From Labilithrix sp. (GTDB taxonomy: Bacteria > Myxococcota_A > Polyangia > Polyangiales > Polyangiaceae), in NCBI GenBank assembly GCA_026128965.1, contig JAHCIY010000002.1:2000468-2064467 (forward strand): a stretch of 64,000 nt of DNA, given 5' to 3'. Made by a program: the position numbers and the translations under genes. Below the pieces are notes generated by a model. The model saw only the letters and a list, made by a program, of their open reading frames with translations, was not told the origin of the DNA and did not search any database. Positions 35,950 through 62,210 of this stretch are shown here, in pieces. Numbering within the stretch: the first letter of the stretch is position 1; every line of letters begins with the position of its first letter.

Positions 35950-36300
35950 TTCTTTCGTTGTCGTGTCGTTTCACTCGTCGTGCTCCGTCGCGGACTGCCG
36001 AGCGGTGTTGGGGCGCGGCGCGACGAAGGGCGAGGGGCACGTGGTCGAGTGGTGTTGTGGCTCCGGGGCGGCGGTCGAGCATGCGCGTCGGACCTGCGCG
36101 ACGAAGGGGAGCGCGCGGCTGCATGTGGTCGAGTGGTGTGGGTTCAGGGCGCGTCGGACCGGTGCGACGAAGGGGCGAGGGACACGTGGTCGAGTGAGTG
36201 TGTTGTGGCTCAGGGCGCGGCGGTCGAGCACGCGCGGCGGACCTGCGCGACGAAGGGGGAGCGCGGGTTGGCTGCGACGAACGTGCTCGCGTTCGCGCGC
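35950..36300. repeat. tandem repeats of about 90 bp (about 3 copies) between the lipoprotein gene start and the anti-sigma gene end
   Basis: (A/C)TGTGGTCGAGTGGTGT..GGCTC(A/C)GGGCGCG..GTCGAGCA(T/C)GCGCG.CGGACCTGCGCGACGAAGGGG recurs at about 36040, 36125 and 36185. The units are not multiples of 3, so PFVAQVRRA peptide motifs appear in different frames. Confidence 0.5.
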
Positions 36301-36361: not shown

Positions 36362-37429
36362 TCAGCGCTCCGCGTGGGAAGCGGGTCGCGTGCTCGTCGA
36401 GGCGGCGAAGCGCGGTCGCGCCGTCGCCGGCCGCGAGCGCGGCATTCGCGGAACGCAGCAACGCGGCCTCTTCTGCGACGAGGTCGCGCGCCGGCCGCGC
36501 TGGTGCCGCGGCAGCTCGGCCGGTGGACGCGCTTGCACCCGCGCCGGCCGAGGCCGCGCTCGAACCTGCACCTGCACCTGCACCTGCGCCGGTGGCGCCG
36601 GCGCGGGCCGAGGCCGCGCTTGCGCCGCTCGAACCTGCACCTGCGCCGGTGGCGCCGGCGGAGGCCGCGTTTGCGCCGCTCGAACTGCTGCGCCTGCCGA
36701 GGCCGCACCTGCGCCGCTCGGGCCCGCGCCGCTCGGGCCCGCGCCACTCGAGCCTGCGCCGCTTGTGCCCGCACGCGGGCCGCCCGCGCTTGGGCCGCTC
36801 GCGGCGTTCGAGCCCGCGCTCCGGCCGTCGCCCGCGCTGTTTGAGCCTGCGCCAACGCCGTTCAGGCCTGCGCCGCTTGCATCCGCGTTTGGGCTTGCGC
36901 CTGCTGCGCTCTTCGCGTCGTCGTTTGAGGGCGCGCTTGGTGCGCTGCTGCCGCTGTCGTTCGAGGTCGGGTTTGCGATGTGCGAGCTCGAGCCGTTCGT
37001 GCCTGTTGCGCCACTTGCGCTGCCGTTCGCGCCTGCGGCCGCGCCGTTCGGTGCCGCGTTACCGCTGGCTCTCGCGGGCTGGGCTGCTGCGCCGCTCACG
37101 CCGGTGGTTGCCGCTGCTTGCGAGACGACGGGCGCTGGCGCTCGCTCTGCGGTCATCACCGCTGCGGTGGTCGCTGCTGCGCTGCCGACGAGGACGACCG
37201 CGACGACCGCCTTCGTTCCGACGAGTGAGCTCAGGAACGAGCCCGACGCCGTCGCGCCCGCGGTCGCCGTCTTCGTGACCGTCGCGGCCGTCGCGCCGGC
37301 GGCGGCGCCGACCGCGATCTTCGCCGCGACGCGCGCGCGGACGCGGGCGGCGTCGGCGGCGGTGGGGTCGTCGCCGCCCTCCGCGGCGTCGAGGAGCGCT
37401 CGCGCGTCGGGGCCGAGGCCGTCCGTCAT
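36362..37429 (-). CDS. anti-sigma factor candidate (membrane-anchored, low-complexity A/G/S/P-rich periplasmic region); the C-terminus is uncertain and possibly frameshifted
   Basis: The ATG overlaps the stop of the ECF sigma gene (ATGA). N-terminus MTDGLGPDARALLDAAEGG followed by one TM segment (GTKAVVAVVLVGSAAATTAAV). A downstream ORF in a different frame (36210..36461) looks like a displaced C-terminal segment. Confidence 0.45.
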   Translation of the reverse strand: MTDGLGPDARALLDAAEGGDDPTAADAARVRARVAAKIAVGAAAGATAATVTKTATAGATASGSFLSSLVGTKAVVAVVLVGSAAATTAAVMTAERAPAPVVSQAAATTGVSGAAAQPARASGNAAPNGAAAGANGSASGATGTNGSSSHIANPTSNDSGSSAPSAPSNDDAKSAAGASPNADASGAGLNGVGAGSNSAGDGRSAGSNAASGPSAGGPRAGTSGAGSSGAGPSGAGPSGAGAASAGAAVRAAQTRPPPAPPAQVQVRAAQARPRPAPAPPAQVQVQVQVRARPRPARVQARPPAELPRHQRGRRATSSQKRPRCCVPRMPRSRPATARPRFAASTSTRPASHAER

Positions 37430-45530: not shown

Positions 45531-48253
45531 CTACTTGTCCATCGGGATGCGCACGTCCTTGAGCTGCTCGGGGAGCACGTCGACGACCAAGGTCTTCTTT
45601 ACCCCGTTCGGGGCCGAGAGCTGAAGCGTGTGACGACCCGCGAGGACGGGACGGCTGAAGATGTGTCCGGGCCCGAGCGGCGTGCCGTTGTCGATGATCT
45701 GATCGCACTTCGCCGGCATACAAACGACGGTGAGGCTGCCCATCGCGCCCGGCCTCGGCGCGGGAGCGGCGGCCGGCCCGGAGCGGCTGCGGCGCGGGCG
45801 CCGGCGCGACGGGCTGCGGCGCGGGCGCGACCGGCGGCGGCGCGACCTGCTGCGGAGCGACCGCGACCGCGGTCGGCGCGGGCGCGCGACCGGCACCGGG
45901 GCCGGGGAACGACGCCGCCCGGCGGCGGCGCGATCCCGCCCGTCGGGGGGAGCACCGGCGCGGAGGGCTGCGGCGCGGTCGCGTTCTGGAACGCGTCCCG
46001 CGCGGCGGTGAACGGACCCGCGACCGATCCCGCGCTCGAGCCCACCGGCGCGGTGCTCTTCGCGACCGGCTGCGGGTTCGTCGTCGAGATGATCGCGATG
46101 ACGATGCCCGCGACGAGGAGCGCGACGGAGCACGACAGCGCGGCGACGACCCACATCGGCGGGCGGCGCTTGAAGCGCTGCGCCGTCATCGTGCGGTTGT
46201 CGTTGTGCTGGATGCGCTGCACCGTCGGCGCCATGCGCGGGCCCATCATACCGACCTGCGTGATGGGGACGAAGTCGCCTTGCGGACCGGTCGGCGCCTG
46301 CTGCTGCCGATAGATCGGCATCGCGTGCGTGTTGTAGTCGGCCTGCTGCTGCTGGTCGTACCCCGCCGGCGTCGTCATCCCGAGCGGGTTCGGGTTCGAG
46401 CCCGGGATCTGGTCGTACCCGCCGCTGTGCATCTCGCCGGGATACGACGGCGAGTGCGAGAACGACGGCTGCGAAGGCGAGGCGTGCGCGATCGGCCCCG
46501 TCATCGCCGCGATGCGCTGGGCGTTCGGGCGCGGCGGCGTGGGCACCGGCCCCGGCGGCATCGGCGCGTTCGGGTTGCGCCCCGCCGCCGGCGTCGGCGG
46601 CGGGTAGCCGGGACCGGCGTGGTTGGGCTCGCGCGAGTTGCCGACGATGGTCTGGTCCTGGTCCTCTTCGGCGAGCTCCTCGGCGTCGAGCACCTCGGCC
46701 GACGCGGCGCTGCGCGCAGGCGGCCGCCCTTGCTTCGGGCGATCGGCCTCCGAGATGTGCATCAACGTCGGCGGCTCGCTGAGCCCGCCGCGGTACTGAT
46801 CGCTCAGCGCGGAGCCCTGGATCGTGGGGCCGTCGCCGTCGGCCGGATGCGCGTCGTCGTCGAGGAGGCCCGCGCTGATCGGCGCGCCCGCGGCGGGGCG
46901 CGGCGCCGGCGGCGGGCGGCCGAACTTCGGCGGACCCGACGGCCCGCGCGGGGTGGTGAGCGAGTTCGCGGTCTCTTTGCCGTCGGCGGGGAGGATCTGC
47001 GGGCCCGGCGGAGGCATCTGTCCCCATCCGCCCGGCGGGGGCGCGCCTGCGGCGGGGGCCGGCGGCATGCCGGCGGCCGGTCTCGGCGGGCCGCCGGCGG
47101 CCGGCTTCGGCGGACCCGCGGGGCGCTCCTCCGAGTTCGTGTACTCGCCCGTCCCGAGCTTCGGCTTCGAGAGGAGCTGGTCGACGTTGATCGTCTGCGT
47201 GACCTCGGCCGCCCAGCGGAGGTGCGCCTCGCGCTTCTGGATGCGGTCCTGGAAGATCTGTTGCGTGTATGCTGCAACTTCATCGGACGCGATGAAGAGG
47301 CCGCGCCGCATGAGGAGCGACTGCAGCGCGCGCGAGAGCTCGCGCGCGGTCTTGAAGCGCTCGCCGCGGTTCTTCGCGAGCGCCTTCATCACGATCTTCT
47401 CGAGGTCGACGGGGTAGCCGCGGATGAGCGTCGACGGGCGCGGGACGTTGCACTCCTGCACCTTCGCGAGCGTGTCGAGATCGCTCTCCATGCGGAAGAG
47501 CCGCTGCCCGGTCGTGAGCTCCCACAAGACGACGCCGAGCGCGAAGATGTCGGTGCGGCGATCGATGGTCTCGCCGTGGACCTGCTCCGGGCTCATGTAC
47601 GCGAGCTTGCCCTTGAGCGTGCCCGCGCGCGTGTGGCTCATGCGTGAGCTGAACTTCGCGATGCCGAAGTCGACGACCTTGGTGACGCCGTCGTACGTGA
47701 CGAAGAGGTTGTGCGGGGTGACGTCGCGGTGGACGAGGCCGAGCTTCTCACCGTTCTTGCCGAGCAGCTCGTGCGCGGCGTGGAGGCCCTCCGCCGCATC
47801 GGCGATGACGCGGCACGCGATCTCCGGCGGCATCGCGGTGCCGAGCTCCTCGGTCCGCCGCATCACCTCGCGGAGCGGCTCGCCATGGAGGTACTCCATC
47901 GCGATCCAGTACGTGTCCTCGTGCTTGCCGAGGTCGAACACCGTCGCGACGTTCGGGTGCGAGATGCGCGCGGCGACGCGCGCTTCGTCGAGGAACATCT
48001 GGACGAAGGAGTCGTCCTCGACGAGGTGGGTGTGGATCTTCTTGATCGCGACCCACTTCTGGAAGCCGCCGGGGCCGTCCATGCGTGCAAGGTGCACGCT
48101 CGCCATACCGCCGATGCCGATCTCGTCGACGACGCGGTAGCGCCCGAGGAAATAGGTGCCGCCGCTCTTGATGTCGGACATCGACGGGTTGCCCGGCCCG
48201 AGGGGCTGCGACGCGATCTCCGGCGGCGGTCTATGCGCGCGATCCTGCGGCAA
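45531..48253 (-). CDS. Ser/Thr protein kinase with a Pro-rich linker, one TM segment and a C-terminal PEGA domain; the reading frame is disrupted at about 45760-45950
   Basis: Kinase motifs IGIGGMASV, AIKK, HRDVTPHNLF, DFG and SPEQ. TM segment MWVVAALSCSVALLVAGIVIAII. The PEGA domain (GSLTVVCMPAKCDQIIDNGTPLG...HTLQLSAPNGVKKTLVVDV) is encoded in a different frame ending at 45531. The probable start is the ATG at 48181 (MSDIKSGG). Confidence 0.7.
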
Positions 48254-48309: not shown

Positions 48310-49260
48310 TCAGCGATCGTTCGTGCGCGGAGAGTCGATGTCGAGGTTTGCGGGCGGGCGCGTCCCGAAGAAGACCGCGCTCCCGACGCCGGCGAGGACG
48401 ACCCCGCCGATGACGTAGGGCCACGGCGAGGACCAGAAGCCGCCGCCGCGACGGAGGTTCTGGTCGCCGCGCGGCGCCTGCGGGCCCTGCGCGGTGAAGC
48501 CCGAGCCCGTGCTCGCGGCCGGGCCGGTGGTGGACGAAGACGACGAAGAAGGACCGGTCGCGGGGCCGCCGCCCGTGCCGTACTCGGGAGGGACGCGGAC
48601 GCGCTCTTCGACTGACGCGATCCGGTTCTGGTGGTTGTCGAGCGCGTCGACGCGCACGACGATGCTCGCGCCCGGCAGCGTGACCTCGGGCCCGATCTCG
48701 AACTCCACGCTCTCGTCGGGCTTCGCGTCGAGCGAGATCTCCTTGCCGGTCGTCCCGTCCTTCGCGACGACGCCGATCTTCGCGACGATCGGCAGGTGTC
48801 CTTTGTCGAGCGTGGCCGTGACCTTGAACGGCTTTCCGGATGCGGTCTCCTTCACCGTCTTGATGCCGAGCTGGATGCTTCCGATCTTCGCGGTGTCCCG
48901 CTTCGCCTTCTCGGCGTAGGGCGCGGAGCGGCTCCGTCCTTCGGGCGGCAGCGTGAACGTCGCGTCGATGATCGACGCCGCCTTGAACGCCGCGATCGCC
49001 TGGTCCTTCTTGCCGAGCGCCGCGCGGATCGCGCCGAGCCGCACGTATCCCTCGAGCACCTCGGGCGGTGCGAGCCCACCTTTCTCGAGCGCCTCGCGAT
49101 AGAGCGGCTCCGCCGTCTCGAGCGAGCCGCGGTCCCACGCGGCCCGCGCCGCGCGCAGCGCAGGCCCACCCGCCGCGTTGTCCTCCGCGAACGCAGAGCT
49201 CGCCAGCGCCATGCAGAGCATGAACGACACGACGAACCGGGCGAGCGACGAAACGCGCAA
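48310..49260 (-). CDS. secreted TPR-like/TM-anchored hypothetical protein upstream of the kinase
   Basis: Signal peptide, TPR-like helices, Ser/Thr/Gly-rich linker and a C-terminal TM segment (YVIGGVVLAGVGSAVFF). Confidence 0.5.
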   Translation of the reverse strand: MRVSSLARFVVSFMLCMALASSAFAEDNAAGGPALRAARAAWDRGSLETAEPLYREALEKGGLAPPEVLEGYVRLGAIRAALGKKDQAIAAFKAASIIDATFTLPPEGRSRSAPYAEKAKRDTAKIGSIQLGIKTVKETASGKPFKVTATLDKGHLPIVAKIGVVAKDGTTGKEISLDAKPDESVEFEIGPEVTLPGASIVVRVDALDNHQNRIASVEERVRVPPEYGTGGGPATGPSSSSSSTTGPAASTGSGFTAQGPQAPRGDQNLRRGGGFWSSPWPYVIGGVVLAGVGSAVFFGTRPPANLDIDSPRTNDR

Positions 49261-49310
49261 TATCTAGAAACGCTATCGCGCCGTAGCAAGACCGCGCAAG
49301 GAGCGGGGTT

Positions 49311-49640
49311 AGTACTCAACTCAACTCAACGTCGGGGCTTCGCCCCGACACCCCACCCCAGACACGGCCCTCGCGCTGCGCGCTCGGGGCGCTTCGCGCC
49401 CGCTTGCGCGGCCGCTTCTGGGGCCCCGTTGGGGGCTCACATCGGGTGTTGCCCGACACGCACCCCCGACACTCACCCCCACAGGCCACAAGGACATGCC
49501 GCCTCCGGGTGGCCCCCGGGTGGCCCCCGGGGCCCCGCGACCGCGGCCGCTTAAGCGGTTGCGAAGCAACCCGAGCGCGCAGCGCGAGGGCCGTGGTCGC
49601 GGGGTGGGGGTGTCGGGGGCGAAGCCCCCGACGTTGAGTG
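49311..49640. repeat. inverted pair of an element of about 125 bp (head-to-head copies at about 49311-49440 and 49515-49640)
   Basis: The reverse complement of 49598-49640 (ggggtgggggtgtcgggggcgaagcccccgacgttgagt) matches 49311-49350. Internal segments (ggccctcgcgctgcgcgctcgg, gcggccgc) also match. A third copy lies at 62088-62210. Confidence 0.6.
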
Positions 49641-49660
49641 CCTTACTTACAGATCACCCT

Positions 49661-49895
49661 ATACCTCGCACGTCACCGGAATACCCCGCACGTCACCGGA
49701 ATACCCTCGCACGTCACCGGAATACCCCGCACGTCACCGGAATACCCCGCACGTCACCGGAATACCCGCACGTCACGGAAAATACCCCGCACGTCACGGA
49801 AATACCCCGCACGTCACGGAAATACCCCGCACGTCACGGGATACCGCACGCACCCGCACGTCACGGAACACCCCGCACCCGCACGTCACGGGAAC
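49661..49895. repeat. tandem array of about 11 units of a 20-bp repeat (consensus ATACCCCGCACGTCACCGGA)
   Basis: Five near-identical ...CACGTCACCGGA units are followed by three ...CACGTCACGGAA units and degenerate terminal units. The units are contiguous with no spacers. Confidence 0.85.
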
Positions 49896-50659
49896 GGCTG
49901 CGCTGGGCGGCCGCGTTCGAAGTAGAACGAGAACACGCCGCGGAGGTGGCCGCGGCAGGGTGGGGGAGGGCCTTCGCCGCCTGGTTGCGCGTCGCGGGGG
50001 TCGGCGAGGTAGATGTCGAAGCAGCCGGCGTTCAGGCGCTCGGCGGCGACCTCCTCCTCGAGGCGGCCGTTCGCGAGGCTCGTGAAGGCGATGAAGCTGC
50101 GGCCGCTGCCGAGGCCGCCGGGCGCCATCTTGTCCGGGGCGCAGCCCTGGGCCGGGTCGGCGCCCATCATCTCCTTCACCGTGCAGGTCCCGTCGCTCGG
50201 GAGCGTCACCTCGTCCACCGCGTTGAGCGTGACGGTCTGCGTCTTGCAGCTTCGCTGCAAATAAAGTGAAAACGCGACAATCGCGGGATCCGGGTCAGGC
50301 GTGACAGGCGTCCCCGCGGGCGTGACCTCGGCGGGGATGTCGACGCGGAGGGTCTCGCCATAGCGGCCCTCGAAGCCGCGGCCGTCGGGCCTGATCTTCT
50401 TGATGTCGTTCACCTGGATCGAGATGCCGTCGGAGAAGTTCTGGAAGTCCGAGCCGCGCTGGATGCGGAGCGTGAGGCTCGTCTCGCGGTACGGCACCGC
50501 GGCGAAGAAGTCCGGCTCGAGGTCGAACGAGCCGTTCCAGCACTCGGGGATGTTGAGCGTGCCCTGGATGCTGCCGGCGCCGTCGCCTTGCGAGCACGCG
50601 GGCGCGCTCGCGGCGAGCGCGGCGAGGACGACGGCGGCGCTGGCGAATCGCCGGAGCAC
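49886..50659 (-). CDS. hypothetical lipoprotein
   Basis: AALAASAPACSQG lipobox. 257 aa. Confidence 0.55.
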   Translation of the reverse strand: MLRRFASAAVVLAALAASAPACSQGDGAGSIQGTLNIPECWNGSFDLEPDFFAAVPYRETSLTLRIQRGSDFQNFSDGISIQVNDIKKIRPDGRGFEGRYGETLRVDIPAEVTPAGTPVTPDPDPAIVAFSLYLQRSCKTQTVTLNAVDEVTLPSDGTCTVKEMMGADPAQGCAPDKMAPGGLGSGRSFIAFTSLANGRLEEEVAAERLNAGCFDIYLADPRDAQPGGEGPPPPCRGHLRGVFSFYFERGRPAQPFP

Positions 50660-50668
50660 GAGCCCACG

Positions 50669-51730
50669 CTAGCAGATGCGCGCGCCGCCGAGGACGCGGT
50701 CGCCGTCGTAGAAGACGGCCACCTGGCCGCGCGACACCGCGCGCACCGGCTCGTGGAACGCGATCGCGTCGGCGGAGACGTGGCCGGACGCCCCTTCGTG
50801 CCGGTAGCGCACGCGGATCCGCGCCTCGCGCGGCAGCTCCACCCCCGGCGCGACGACGACGTCCTCGATCCGAGCGCTCGTCGCGGCGAGGTCGTCTTCG
50901 TCGCCGAGGTGCACCGTCGCGGTCGCAGGATCGATCGCGGTCACGAACGCCGGCCTGCCCAGCGCGACGCCGAGCCCCTTCCGCTGCCCGACCGTGAAGC
51001 GGTGCACGCCGTCGTGCATCCCGACGCGCCGGCCGTCGCGATCGACGATCGGCCCCGGCCGGAGCCGCGGCTTCGCCCGCTCTTCCACGAAGGTGGCGTA
51101 CGCGCCCGCGCCCGCGCCGACGAAGCAGAGCTCCTGGCTCTCGCCCTTCGTCGCGCCCGGGACCTTGCGCGCGAGCGCCTCCGCCCGCACCTCCGCCTTC
51201 GTGCTCTCGCCGAGCGGGAACACGAGCCGCTCGAGGTGAGGGAGCGTCGTCGCGTAGAGAAAGTAGCTCTGGTCCTTCGTGCCGTCGTGTCCCTCGCGGA
51301 TGAAGGGCACGCCGTCGTCGGTGCGCCCCATCCGCGCGTAGTGGCCGGTCGCGACGCGCGCGGCGCCGAGCCGATCCGCGAGCGCGACGAGCTCCGCGAT
51401 CTTCACCCCGCGGTTGCACGCGGCGCACGGGCTCGGCGTCTCGCCCGCGACGTACGCATCGACGAACGGCTCCACCACCGTGCGCGCGAAGAGCTCGCGG
51501 CGATCGAAGGTGTAGTGCGGGATGCCGAGCGCGTCGGCGGTGCGCCGCGCGTCGTACTGGTCCTCCGGCGCGCAGCAGCGCCCGTGCGATCCCGCGCCCG
51601 TCTCGGGGTAGTCCCAGAGGTGGAGCGTGACTCCGACGACCTCGTGCCCCGCGTCGACGAGGCGCGCGGCGGCGACGGCGGAGTCGACTCCGCCGCTCAT
51701 CGCCACGATCACGCGCTCCTTCGCCGCCAT
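50669..51730 (-). CDS. mnmA: tRNA-specific 2-thiouridylase MnmA
   Basis: RVIVAMSGGVDSAVAA PP-loop and catalytic Cys motifs (CAACNRGVK, ELCFVG). ATG at 51730. Confidence 0.9.
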   Translation of the reverse strand: MAAKERVIVAMSGGVDSAVAAARLVDAGHEVVGVTLHLWDYPETGAGSHGRCCAPEDQYDARRTADALGIPHYTFDRRELFARTVVEPFVDAYVAGETPSPCAACNRGVKIAELVALADRLGAARVATGHYARMGRTDDGVPFIREGHDGTKDQSYFLYATTLPHLERLVFPLGESTKAEVRAEALARKVPGATKGESQELCFVGAGAGAYATFVEERAKPRLRPGPIVDRDGRRVGMHDGVHRFTVGQRKGLGVALGRPAFVTAIDPATATVHLGDEDDLAATSARIEDVVVAPGVELPREARIRVRYRHEGASGHVSADAIAFHEPVRAVSRGQVAVFYDGDRVLGGARIC

Positions 51731-51770
51731 GGCGCGAGAACCTAATGGCGCGCGGCGCAAGAAGGAAGCG

Positions 51771-62087: not shown

Positions 62088-62210
62088 TGTCAACGTCGGG
62101 GGCTTTGCCCCCGACACCCCCACCCCGCGACCACGGCCCTCGCGCGGAGCGCGAGGGTTGCTTCGCAACCGCTGCAGCGGCCGCGGTCGCGGGGCCCCCT
62201 CTCGACCTTC
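62088..62210. repeat. third copy of the dispersed element of about 125 bp (same orientation as the 49311-49440 copy)
   Basis: caacgtcgggggctttgcccccgacacccccaccccgcgaccacggccctcgcgcggagcgcgagggttgcttcgcaaccgc...gcggccgcggtcgcggggcc is about 90% identical to the reverse complement of 49520-49640. It generates matching pseudo-peptides in ORFs 49496.. and 61824... Confidence 0.6.

Follow-up and report, generated by a model that had tools for sequence, protein, structure and literature searches.

The analysed DNA is a 64,000-nt stretch of Labilithrix sp., the whole of which is called the window (64 kb) here. Its minus strand carries mnmA, a predicted lipoprotein gene, a gene for a TPR-repeat protein and a Ser/Thr protein kinase gene, and an ECF sigma factor gene is also present among the neighbors of the array described below. 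No Pfam match was obtained for the lipoprotein (257 aa), and a Labilithrix sp. MAG encodes a protein with 100% identity to it. The spacer between the lipoprotein and TPR genes is 625 bp long, and the tandem array occupies only its gene-proximal 230 bp. The features, in gene direction and followed by a distant repeat copy, are:

50669-51760, minus strand: mnmA
49886-50659, minus strand: predicted lipoprotein gene, 257 aa, signal peptide with an ...APAC lipobox
49889-49865 (25 nt), 49864-49838 (27), 49837-49818 (20), 49817-49798 (20), minus strand: array units 1-4
49797-49777 (21), 49776-49758 (19), 49757-49738 (20), 49737-49718 (20), minus strand: array units 5-8
49717-49697 (21), 49696-49677 (20), 49676-49661 (16, truncated), minus strand: array units 9-11
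49641-49660, minus strand: unique 20-bp linker between the array and the inverted-repeat element, AGGGTGATCTGTAAGTAAGG...
49316-49645, no strand: inverted-repeat element of ~320 bp, separating the array from the promoter
49294-49299, minus strand: -35-like hexamer TTGCGC, conserved across relatives
49270-49275, minus strand: -10-like hexamer TAGCGT, part of the conserved GATAGCGTTT
48310-49260, minus strand: TPR-repeat protein gene, 316 aa, conserved downstream neighbor of the lipoprotein gene
45599-48253, minus strand: Ser/Thr protein kinase gene with a Pkinase domain, following the TPR gene
62090-62198, minus strand: solo copy of a 110-bp repeat, 94% identical to the element arm at 49529-49637, without a tandem array

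Parsing of the minus strand resolves 49661-49891 into eleven head-to-tail units with the consensus GTGACGTGCGGGGTATT(T)CC(G). An array of eleven units of about 20 bp had been proposed by a previous sequence-only reading, and its coordinates, unit sequences and count are all correct. The decamer GTGACGTGCG (minus strand) is found in exactly 11 consecutive copies, all in the array; the remainder of the 64-kb window has none. The 11-mer CCGCACGTCAC (written in reverse, CACTGCACGCC) occurs nine times in the window, each time within the array, vs. 0.08 occurrences expected from shuffles. Tandem Repeats Finder describes 49661-49845 as a repeat of period 20 with 9.2 copies, 92% matches and a score of 282, the maximum of the window, and adds a degenerate continuation of period 25 at 49826-49891. 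Two other tandem repeats of the window, at 36083-36202 (period 66, 1.9 copies, score 152) and 36539-36685 (period 57, 2.6 copies, score 170), have periods that are multiples of three and may therefore be coding.

Two types of units are visible, as had been described: ...CACCGGAATA in five or six units and ...CACGGAAATA in four. The two gene-proximal units are degenerate, each containing one additional GTGCG-type pentamer. In gene direction, these two units are followed by four TATTTCC units and then by five or six TATTCCG units; such blocks of identical units point to a recent stepwise expansion of the array. Several variants differ solely in the length of a homopolymer (CCCC/CCC, AAA/AAAA) and could be sequencing errors, as the source is a MAG. 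The units are contiguous, without unique spacers, so the array is not a CRISPR, in line with the sequence-only reading. Eleven head-to-tail units, a period of 19-27 (mode 20) and 92% matches are the features of a VNTR or minisatellite, and the sequence evidence fits the earlier idea of a minisatellite prone to contraction and expansion. The term palindrome-like, which had been applied to the core, is generous: the self-complementary part is limited to ACGT, and CACGTCAC reads better as two CAC-type pentamers (CGCAC/GTCAC) than as a palindrome.

The array was thought to run from the lipoprotein stop codon toward the TPR start. It does begin at the stop, yet the TGA (49886-49888) is not beside the array: together with the last codons of the gene, it is part of unit 1. 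At the other end, the array stops at 49661, 400 bp before the TPR start at 49260, and the rest of the 625-bp spacer belongs to another element. Since the array begins inside the upstream stop codon, it would belong to the 3' trailer of the lipoprotein gene, and no promoter is adjacent to it.

The neighboring element has two arms, formed by opposed copies of a GC-rich repeat of ~110 bp (about 49324-49430 and 49529-49639), and a center of ~100 bp with short repeats of 11 and 13 bp. The arms are 89% complementary across 53 nt, and the complementarity continues further. The element folds as one long hairpin, and the fold of the whole spacer has a z-score of -11.3 vs. shuffles. Short tandem repeats are present in or beside it: ACTCA (3.4 copies) at 49314-49330, GCCCCCGGGTG (2.8 copies) at 49501-49531 and CCCGACACGCACC (2.2 copies) at 49452-49480. 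The 110-bp repeat starts with (A)CTCAACGTCGGGGGC-NNN-GCCCCCGAC ACCCCCACCCC and ends with GCGGCCGC; it has no Rfam match. Three copies were seen in the 64 kb. The solo copy at 62090-62198 indicates, by its 94% identity, that the inverted-repeat element was built from a dispersed ~110-bp repeat and, as it is not accompanied by an array, that repeat and array occur independently of each other. The 110-bp repeat resembles REP/BIME or MITE sequences and may be a family of that kind in this lineage.

Relatives were gathered by orthologue look-ups and by a metagenome scan with a lipoprotein profile, resulting in about 70 orthologous loci. The order mnmA-lipoprotein-TPR-kinase is kept in these loci, the TPR gene following the lipoprotein gene wherever the contig sequence suffices. 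A second assembly of the same MAG (L031, GCA_019637155.1) is identical across 6774 bp, the array included; the two assemblies may derive from the same reads. The other nearest orthologues share 76-82% protein identity, and no strain-level relative of the source was found, the nearest orthologue being 82% identical in protein (L038, the closest orthologous contig). The 20-bp array is present in none of the ~70 loci, and none of them has more than two near-matches to the core. No match was obtained either when metagenome contigs were scanned with a pattern specific to the unit. The orthologous spacers, as estimated, are mostly 65-170 bp long, with a few of 210-410 bp, and the 625 bp of the window are the longest.

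The promoter of the TPR and kinase genes can be predicted from the same loci. GATAGCRT is located a few bases ahead of the TPR start in 28 orthologous loci, and in about 26 of these 28, cTTGCG is found 17-18 nt upstream of TAGCGT. The sequence between and around the two blocks is not conserved among the 28 loci. The resulting motif, cTTGCGc-N17/18-(ccGA)TAGCGTTT, about 9 nt before the TPR start (L032-L098), is a predicted sigma-70-type -35/-10 pair preserved by selection. A plain sigma-70 consensus scan of 48900-50300 returned no promoter, so the prediction draws on cross-species conservation. The TTG start codon of the TPR gene (49260-49258) follows the -10 hexamer after 9 nt; with such a short gap, the TPR/kinase mRNA would probably be leaderless, across this group as well.

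The array had also been assigned to the promoter region of the kinase operon, and here the previous interpretation has to be corrected. The conserved promoter (49270-49299) lies 361 bp past the near end of the array. Seen from its -35 hexamer, the array covers the stretch 361-592 bp upstream, with the 320-bp hairpin element in between. The repeat neither overlaps nor splits the -35/-10 pair (49299-49270), nor is it situated in a 5' coding region, as would be expected for phase variation. The sequence-only reading had itself named loss from close relatives and a 3' location away from any promoter as arguments against its proposal, and these largely apply here, the nearest relatives being only 77-82% identical in the flanking protein. 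In the closest relatives, the lipoprotein stop is only ~30 bp from the -35 hexamer, which implies that the segment amplified in Labilithrix was once promoter-proximal. This distance is typical of an activator site or UP element, making a regulatory role conceivable.

The content of the unit indicates where it comes from. The lipoprotein gene ends with ...CAGCCGTTCCCGTGA|CGTGCGGG and runs directly into the array as CAGCCGTTCCCGTGACGTGCGGG. Every unit contains TT(T)CC(G)GTGACGTGCGGGGTA, a copy of the last codons (TTCC(C/G)GTGA), the stop and ~11 bases of the 3' flank. All orthologues end in ...CAGCCNTTCCCN-stop (Q P F P stop); the gene ending CAGCCNTTCCCNTGA, conserved in all of them, is thus ancestral. 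The presence in the unit of the gene end TTCCCGTGA and its 3' flank, in an array absent from the ~70 orthologous loci, indicates that the array arose in place via tandem duplication. Furthermore, one similar stretch is seen past the stop codon in each of the closest relatives without the array, namely, L032 (TGAtctgcgtcGATGTGCGTGGTACCCGTccttgcg / GATGTGCGTGGTACCCGT), L039 (...GGTGCGCGGTACCCGTccttgc / GGTGCGCGGTACCCGT) and L060 (CCGTGACGTGTGTGCG). These stretches are possible single-copy progenitors of the unit.

Smaller duplications are seen at the same place in other relatives. Duplications of 8-11 bp extend over the same stop codon in L039/L040 (CCCTGATGTAG, 2.4 copies), L061 (CGTGAGCG, two copies) and L032, and, judged from these comparisons, the stop-codon site is prone to small duplications. 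In L045, the orthologous spacer contains a perfect heptamer array, (CTGAGGA)x7.6, at about 2443-2495, and its complement AGTCCTC (2.3 copies) just past the lipoprotein stop; these repeats arose there independently. The 110-bp repeat is found directly past the lipoprotein stop in L038 (1289-1375), and a related hairpin or repeat copy occupies the same place in L041 (2573-2607), both being Labilithrix-like contigs. In L038, an IS4/Tn5-family transposase gene (1446-2870) is found where the TPR gene would be expected, immediately past the lipoprotein gene and the 110-bp repeat copy. The insertion of both the repeat and the IS in L038 marks the spacer as an insertion hot spot. The lipoprotein-TPR spacer is evidently a tolerant hot spot, in which the array was born and to which it was not imported; a comparison with plasmid and phage records revealed no similarity to the array.

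Taken together, the array is likely to be a lineage-specific minisatellite of the VNTR type that grew in place from the end of the lipoprotein gene and is presumably neutral. A segment of ~20 bp, reaching from the last codons across the TGA to ~11 bases into the 3' flank, would have been tandemly duplicated repeatedly by replication slippage or unequal recombination. The product would be part of the mnmA-lipoprotein transcript, forming its 3' trailer, and would have no sequence-specific function; its maximal effect would be 230 bp of extra spacer upstream of the long hairpin element. This hairpin element was probably a separate insertion, immediately ahead of the TPR/kinase promoter. The copy number of the array would be expected to vary between strains.

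The core of the unit is not restricted to this genome. A scan of 185,579 species genomes (596 Gb) for two cores 19-22 bp apart identified 30 loci (L001-L030), nearly all of them tandem arrays with the same core and unrelated linkers, although the two-core design itself selects tandem arrays. In viral contigs, the two-core pattern had no matches. The hosts are Streptomyces and other actinobacteria, as well as Polyangiaceae, Planctomycetota, Burkholderiaceae and Treponema MAGs; examples are Streptomyces heilongjiangensis (L014, 12 units), Dactylosporangium (L002, 18 units) and a Polyangiaceae MAG (L006). The periods are 10, 11 or 19-23. A flank preference was observed at one position only, a C after the core (+1) in 21 of the 30 arrays, which is marginal, and this C is forced by the 10-11-bp period in five of the 30. 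The arrays lie inside or between genes, with inconsistent orientation and position. Many are composed of CAC-type pentamers and are hence cryptically simple sequence. As a rough count, Tandem Repeats Finder lists ~10 rows of period 19-22 per 64 kb in the window; scaled to the high-GC part of the 596 Gb, this rate would yield tens of matches for any GC-rich 11-mer. According to this rough estimate, the shared core is probably due to chance or cryptic simplicity. It is very unlikely that CCGCACGTCACC(G) serves, in tandem arrays across distant phyla, as the site of a widespread direct-repeat-binding regulator or of a repeat-generating enzyme, with the Labilithrix array as one case that tunes the neighboring kinase operon.

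Could the array nevertheless act on transcription? It offers eleven nearly identical sites that share a conserved 10-bp core and are spaced by 20 bp, close to two helical turns; these could be phased transcription factor sites modulating the TPR/kinase promoter or the upstream genes. The position of the amplified segment near the -35 hexamer in relatives and the core-sharing arrays in other phyla are compatible with this. A candidate binder would be an OmpR-type response regulator recognizing GTCAC-type direct repeats, as the direct repeats of the array may resemble OmpR-family sites. However, a conserved or recurrent site is missing: the post-stop sequences of the relatives are unrelated, unlike the -35/-10 pair, and the ~70 loci that keep the promoter motif have no array. 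Exact copies of the core within the 64-kb window are confined to this array, and copies with up to two mismatches outside of it are not enriched (17 vs. 18.5 expected). The array now stands behind the 320-bp hairpin element, hundreds of bp from the -35 hexamer, and the copied gene end already accounts for the content of the unit. Also, the other 30 arrays have no consistent gene position or orientation, and their flank preference is marginal. A sigma-54 promoter with an enhancer array was considered and rejected, since the conserved TTGC is not accompanied by a GG at -24 spacing and TAGCGT fits a sigma-70-type -10; an enhancer-type array thus has no target. An ECF-type promoter within the unit (GGAA...CGTC) was likewise discarded, the spacing being 9 or 29 nt vs. 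16-17. Transcription factor sites are therefore unlikely, and the iteron-like array of such sites, put forward by the sequence-only reading, is not supported, all the more as no replication or partition gene that could point to an iteron initiator or origin is present near the array. An action at the RNA level, in the 3' UTR of the lipoprotein gene, would take the form of weak terminator hairpins, a protein-binding decoy or a ribosome-retaining chain of mini-ORFs. One unit does score as a weak terminator-like site, and the plus strand has one GGA per unit. The 20-bp unit also forms a mini-ORF of seven codons, GTG ACG TGC GGG GTA TT(T/C) C(C/G)G TGA, the stop of which overlaps the GTG of the next unit (GTGA), in a chain beginning at the lipoprotein stop. 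However, such a chain arises automatically when a region containing a stop codon is duplicated at a period of 20 bp, and it is interrupted by the 19- and 21-bp units. The array RNA is not more stable than shuffles on either strand (z = -0.17 for the minus and +1.34 for the plus strand), and Rfam gave no match at E <= 1 over 48800-50400. A CsrA-type GGA decoy RNA on the plus strand was dismissed for lack of both a fold and an Rfam match. As the array is, moreover, conserved in no relative, a role as RNA is very improbable.

Two further explanations concern the provenance of the array. The array and the inverted-repeat element are 20 bp apart and both missing from most relatives, and the same site took up the 110-bp repeat and the transposase gene (L038) or a related hairpin (L041); the two could thus be one composite mobile or REP/BIME-like insertion that arrived together. 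This is contradicted by the occurrence of the 110-bp repeat without the array, both at 62090-62198 and in L038, by a unit derived from the 3' end of a resident gene, which is not expected in an imported element, and by the lack of a match in plasmid or phage collections. A joint arrival therefore has very little probability. The copy number or the unit variants could also be an assembly or sequencing artefact, considering that the source is a MAG, that the 230-bp array exceeds a typical short read and that the variants are mostly changes in homopolymer length. Two public assemblies, perhaps not independent, are identical at the locus, and a block structure of two unit types, with degenerate units next to the gene, is what real arrays typically show. 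The repeat is anchored in a unique gene end, so that the repeat itself is real, and we consider an artefact in its details highly unlikely.

For a minisatellite grown in place, the closest precedent, by analogy, is the ETR-F/VNTR3239 locus of M. tuberculosis. In the M. tuberculosis complex, the rnc-fpg1 spacer contains a VNTR of 279-358 bp, compared with 1-54 bp in other mycobacteria (PMC2734929). In both cases, head-to-tail repeats fill a spacer between co-oriented syntenic genes, and the spacer measures hundreds of bp in one lineage and is very short in relatives. The copy-number polymorphism of ETR-F/VNTR3239 is documented and its units are longer and more complex, whereas the Labilithrix array is known from assemblies and its unit includes the stop codon of the upstream gene. 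Tandem repeats of Borgs, which are perfect, rich in A and spread throughout the replicon, can begin within gene ends (PMC9879509). These are also recent, lineage-specific intergenic arrays, 20-nt units included, with a first unit that partly overlaps the end of a gene and with partial repeats on the flanks; the Labilithrix array, in contrast, is imperfect (92%), GC-rich and isolated within the window.

Other known repeats share fewer characteristics with the locus. Plasmid iterons and partition-site arrays also consist of several direct repeats of ~20 bp with a conserved core, and the Labilithrix unit falls within their range of 17-22 bp. However, neither a rep or par gene nor an AT-rich origin is present at the locus, which also lacks similarity to plasmids and phages; its synteny is chromosomally conserved, and its unit is derived from a resident gene end. 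MIRUs, reportedly described by Supply et al. in 1997 as units of 40-100 bp dispersed at about 41 loci, are likewise tandem units between co-oriented genes, with small ORFs overlapping the flanking stop and start codons; the Labilithrix unit, with 20 bp, is below this size and is confined to one place within the 64-kb window. The 320-bp element, and not the array, resembles REP/BIME/REPIN sequences: a dispersed GC-rich palindromic unit located after stop codons, an inverted pair and a long hairpin. Its 110-bp unit is much longer than classical REPs, with the three copies seen in 64 kb.

The significance of the array beyond this genome is little, and a regulatory question would arise only with binding to the repeat or a copy-number-dependent effect on expression. 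The locus is nonetheless a clean example of the birth of a bacterial minisatellite, with a stop-codon seed and mini-duplications at the same site in relatives. The array would be suitable as a typing marker if Labilithrix strains become available. The spacer itself is a hot spot in which repeats, a hairpin element and an IS have been acquired independently in different lineages.
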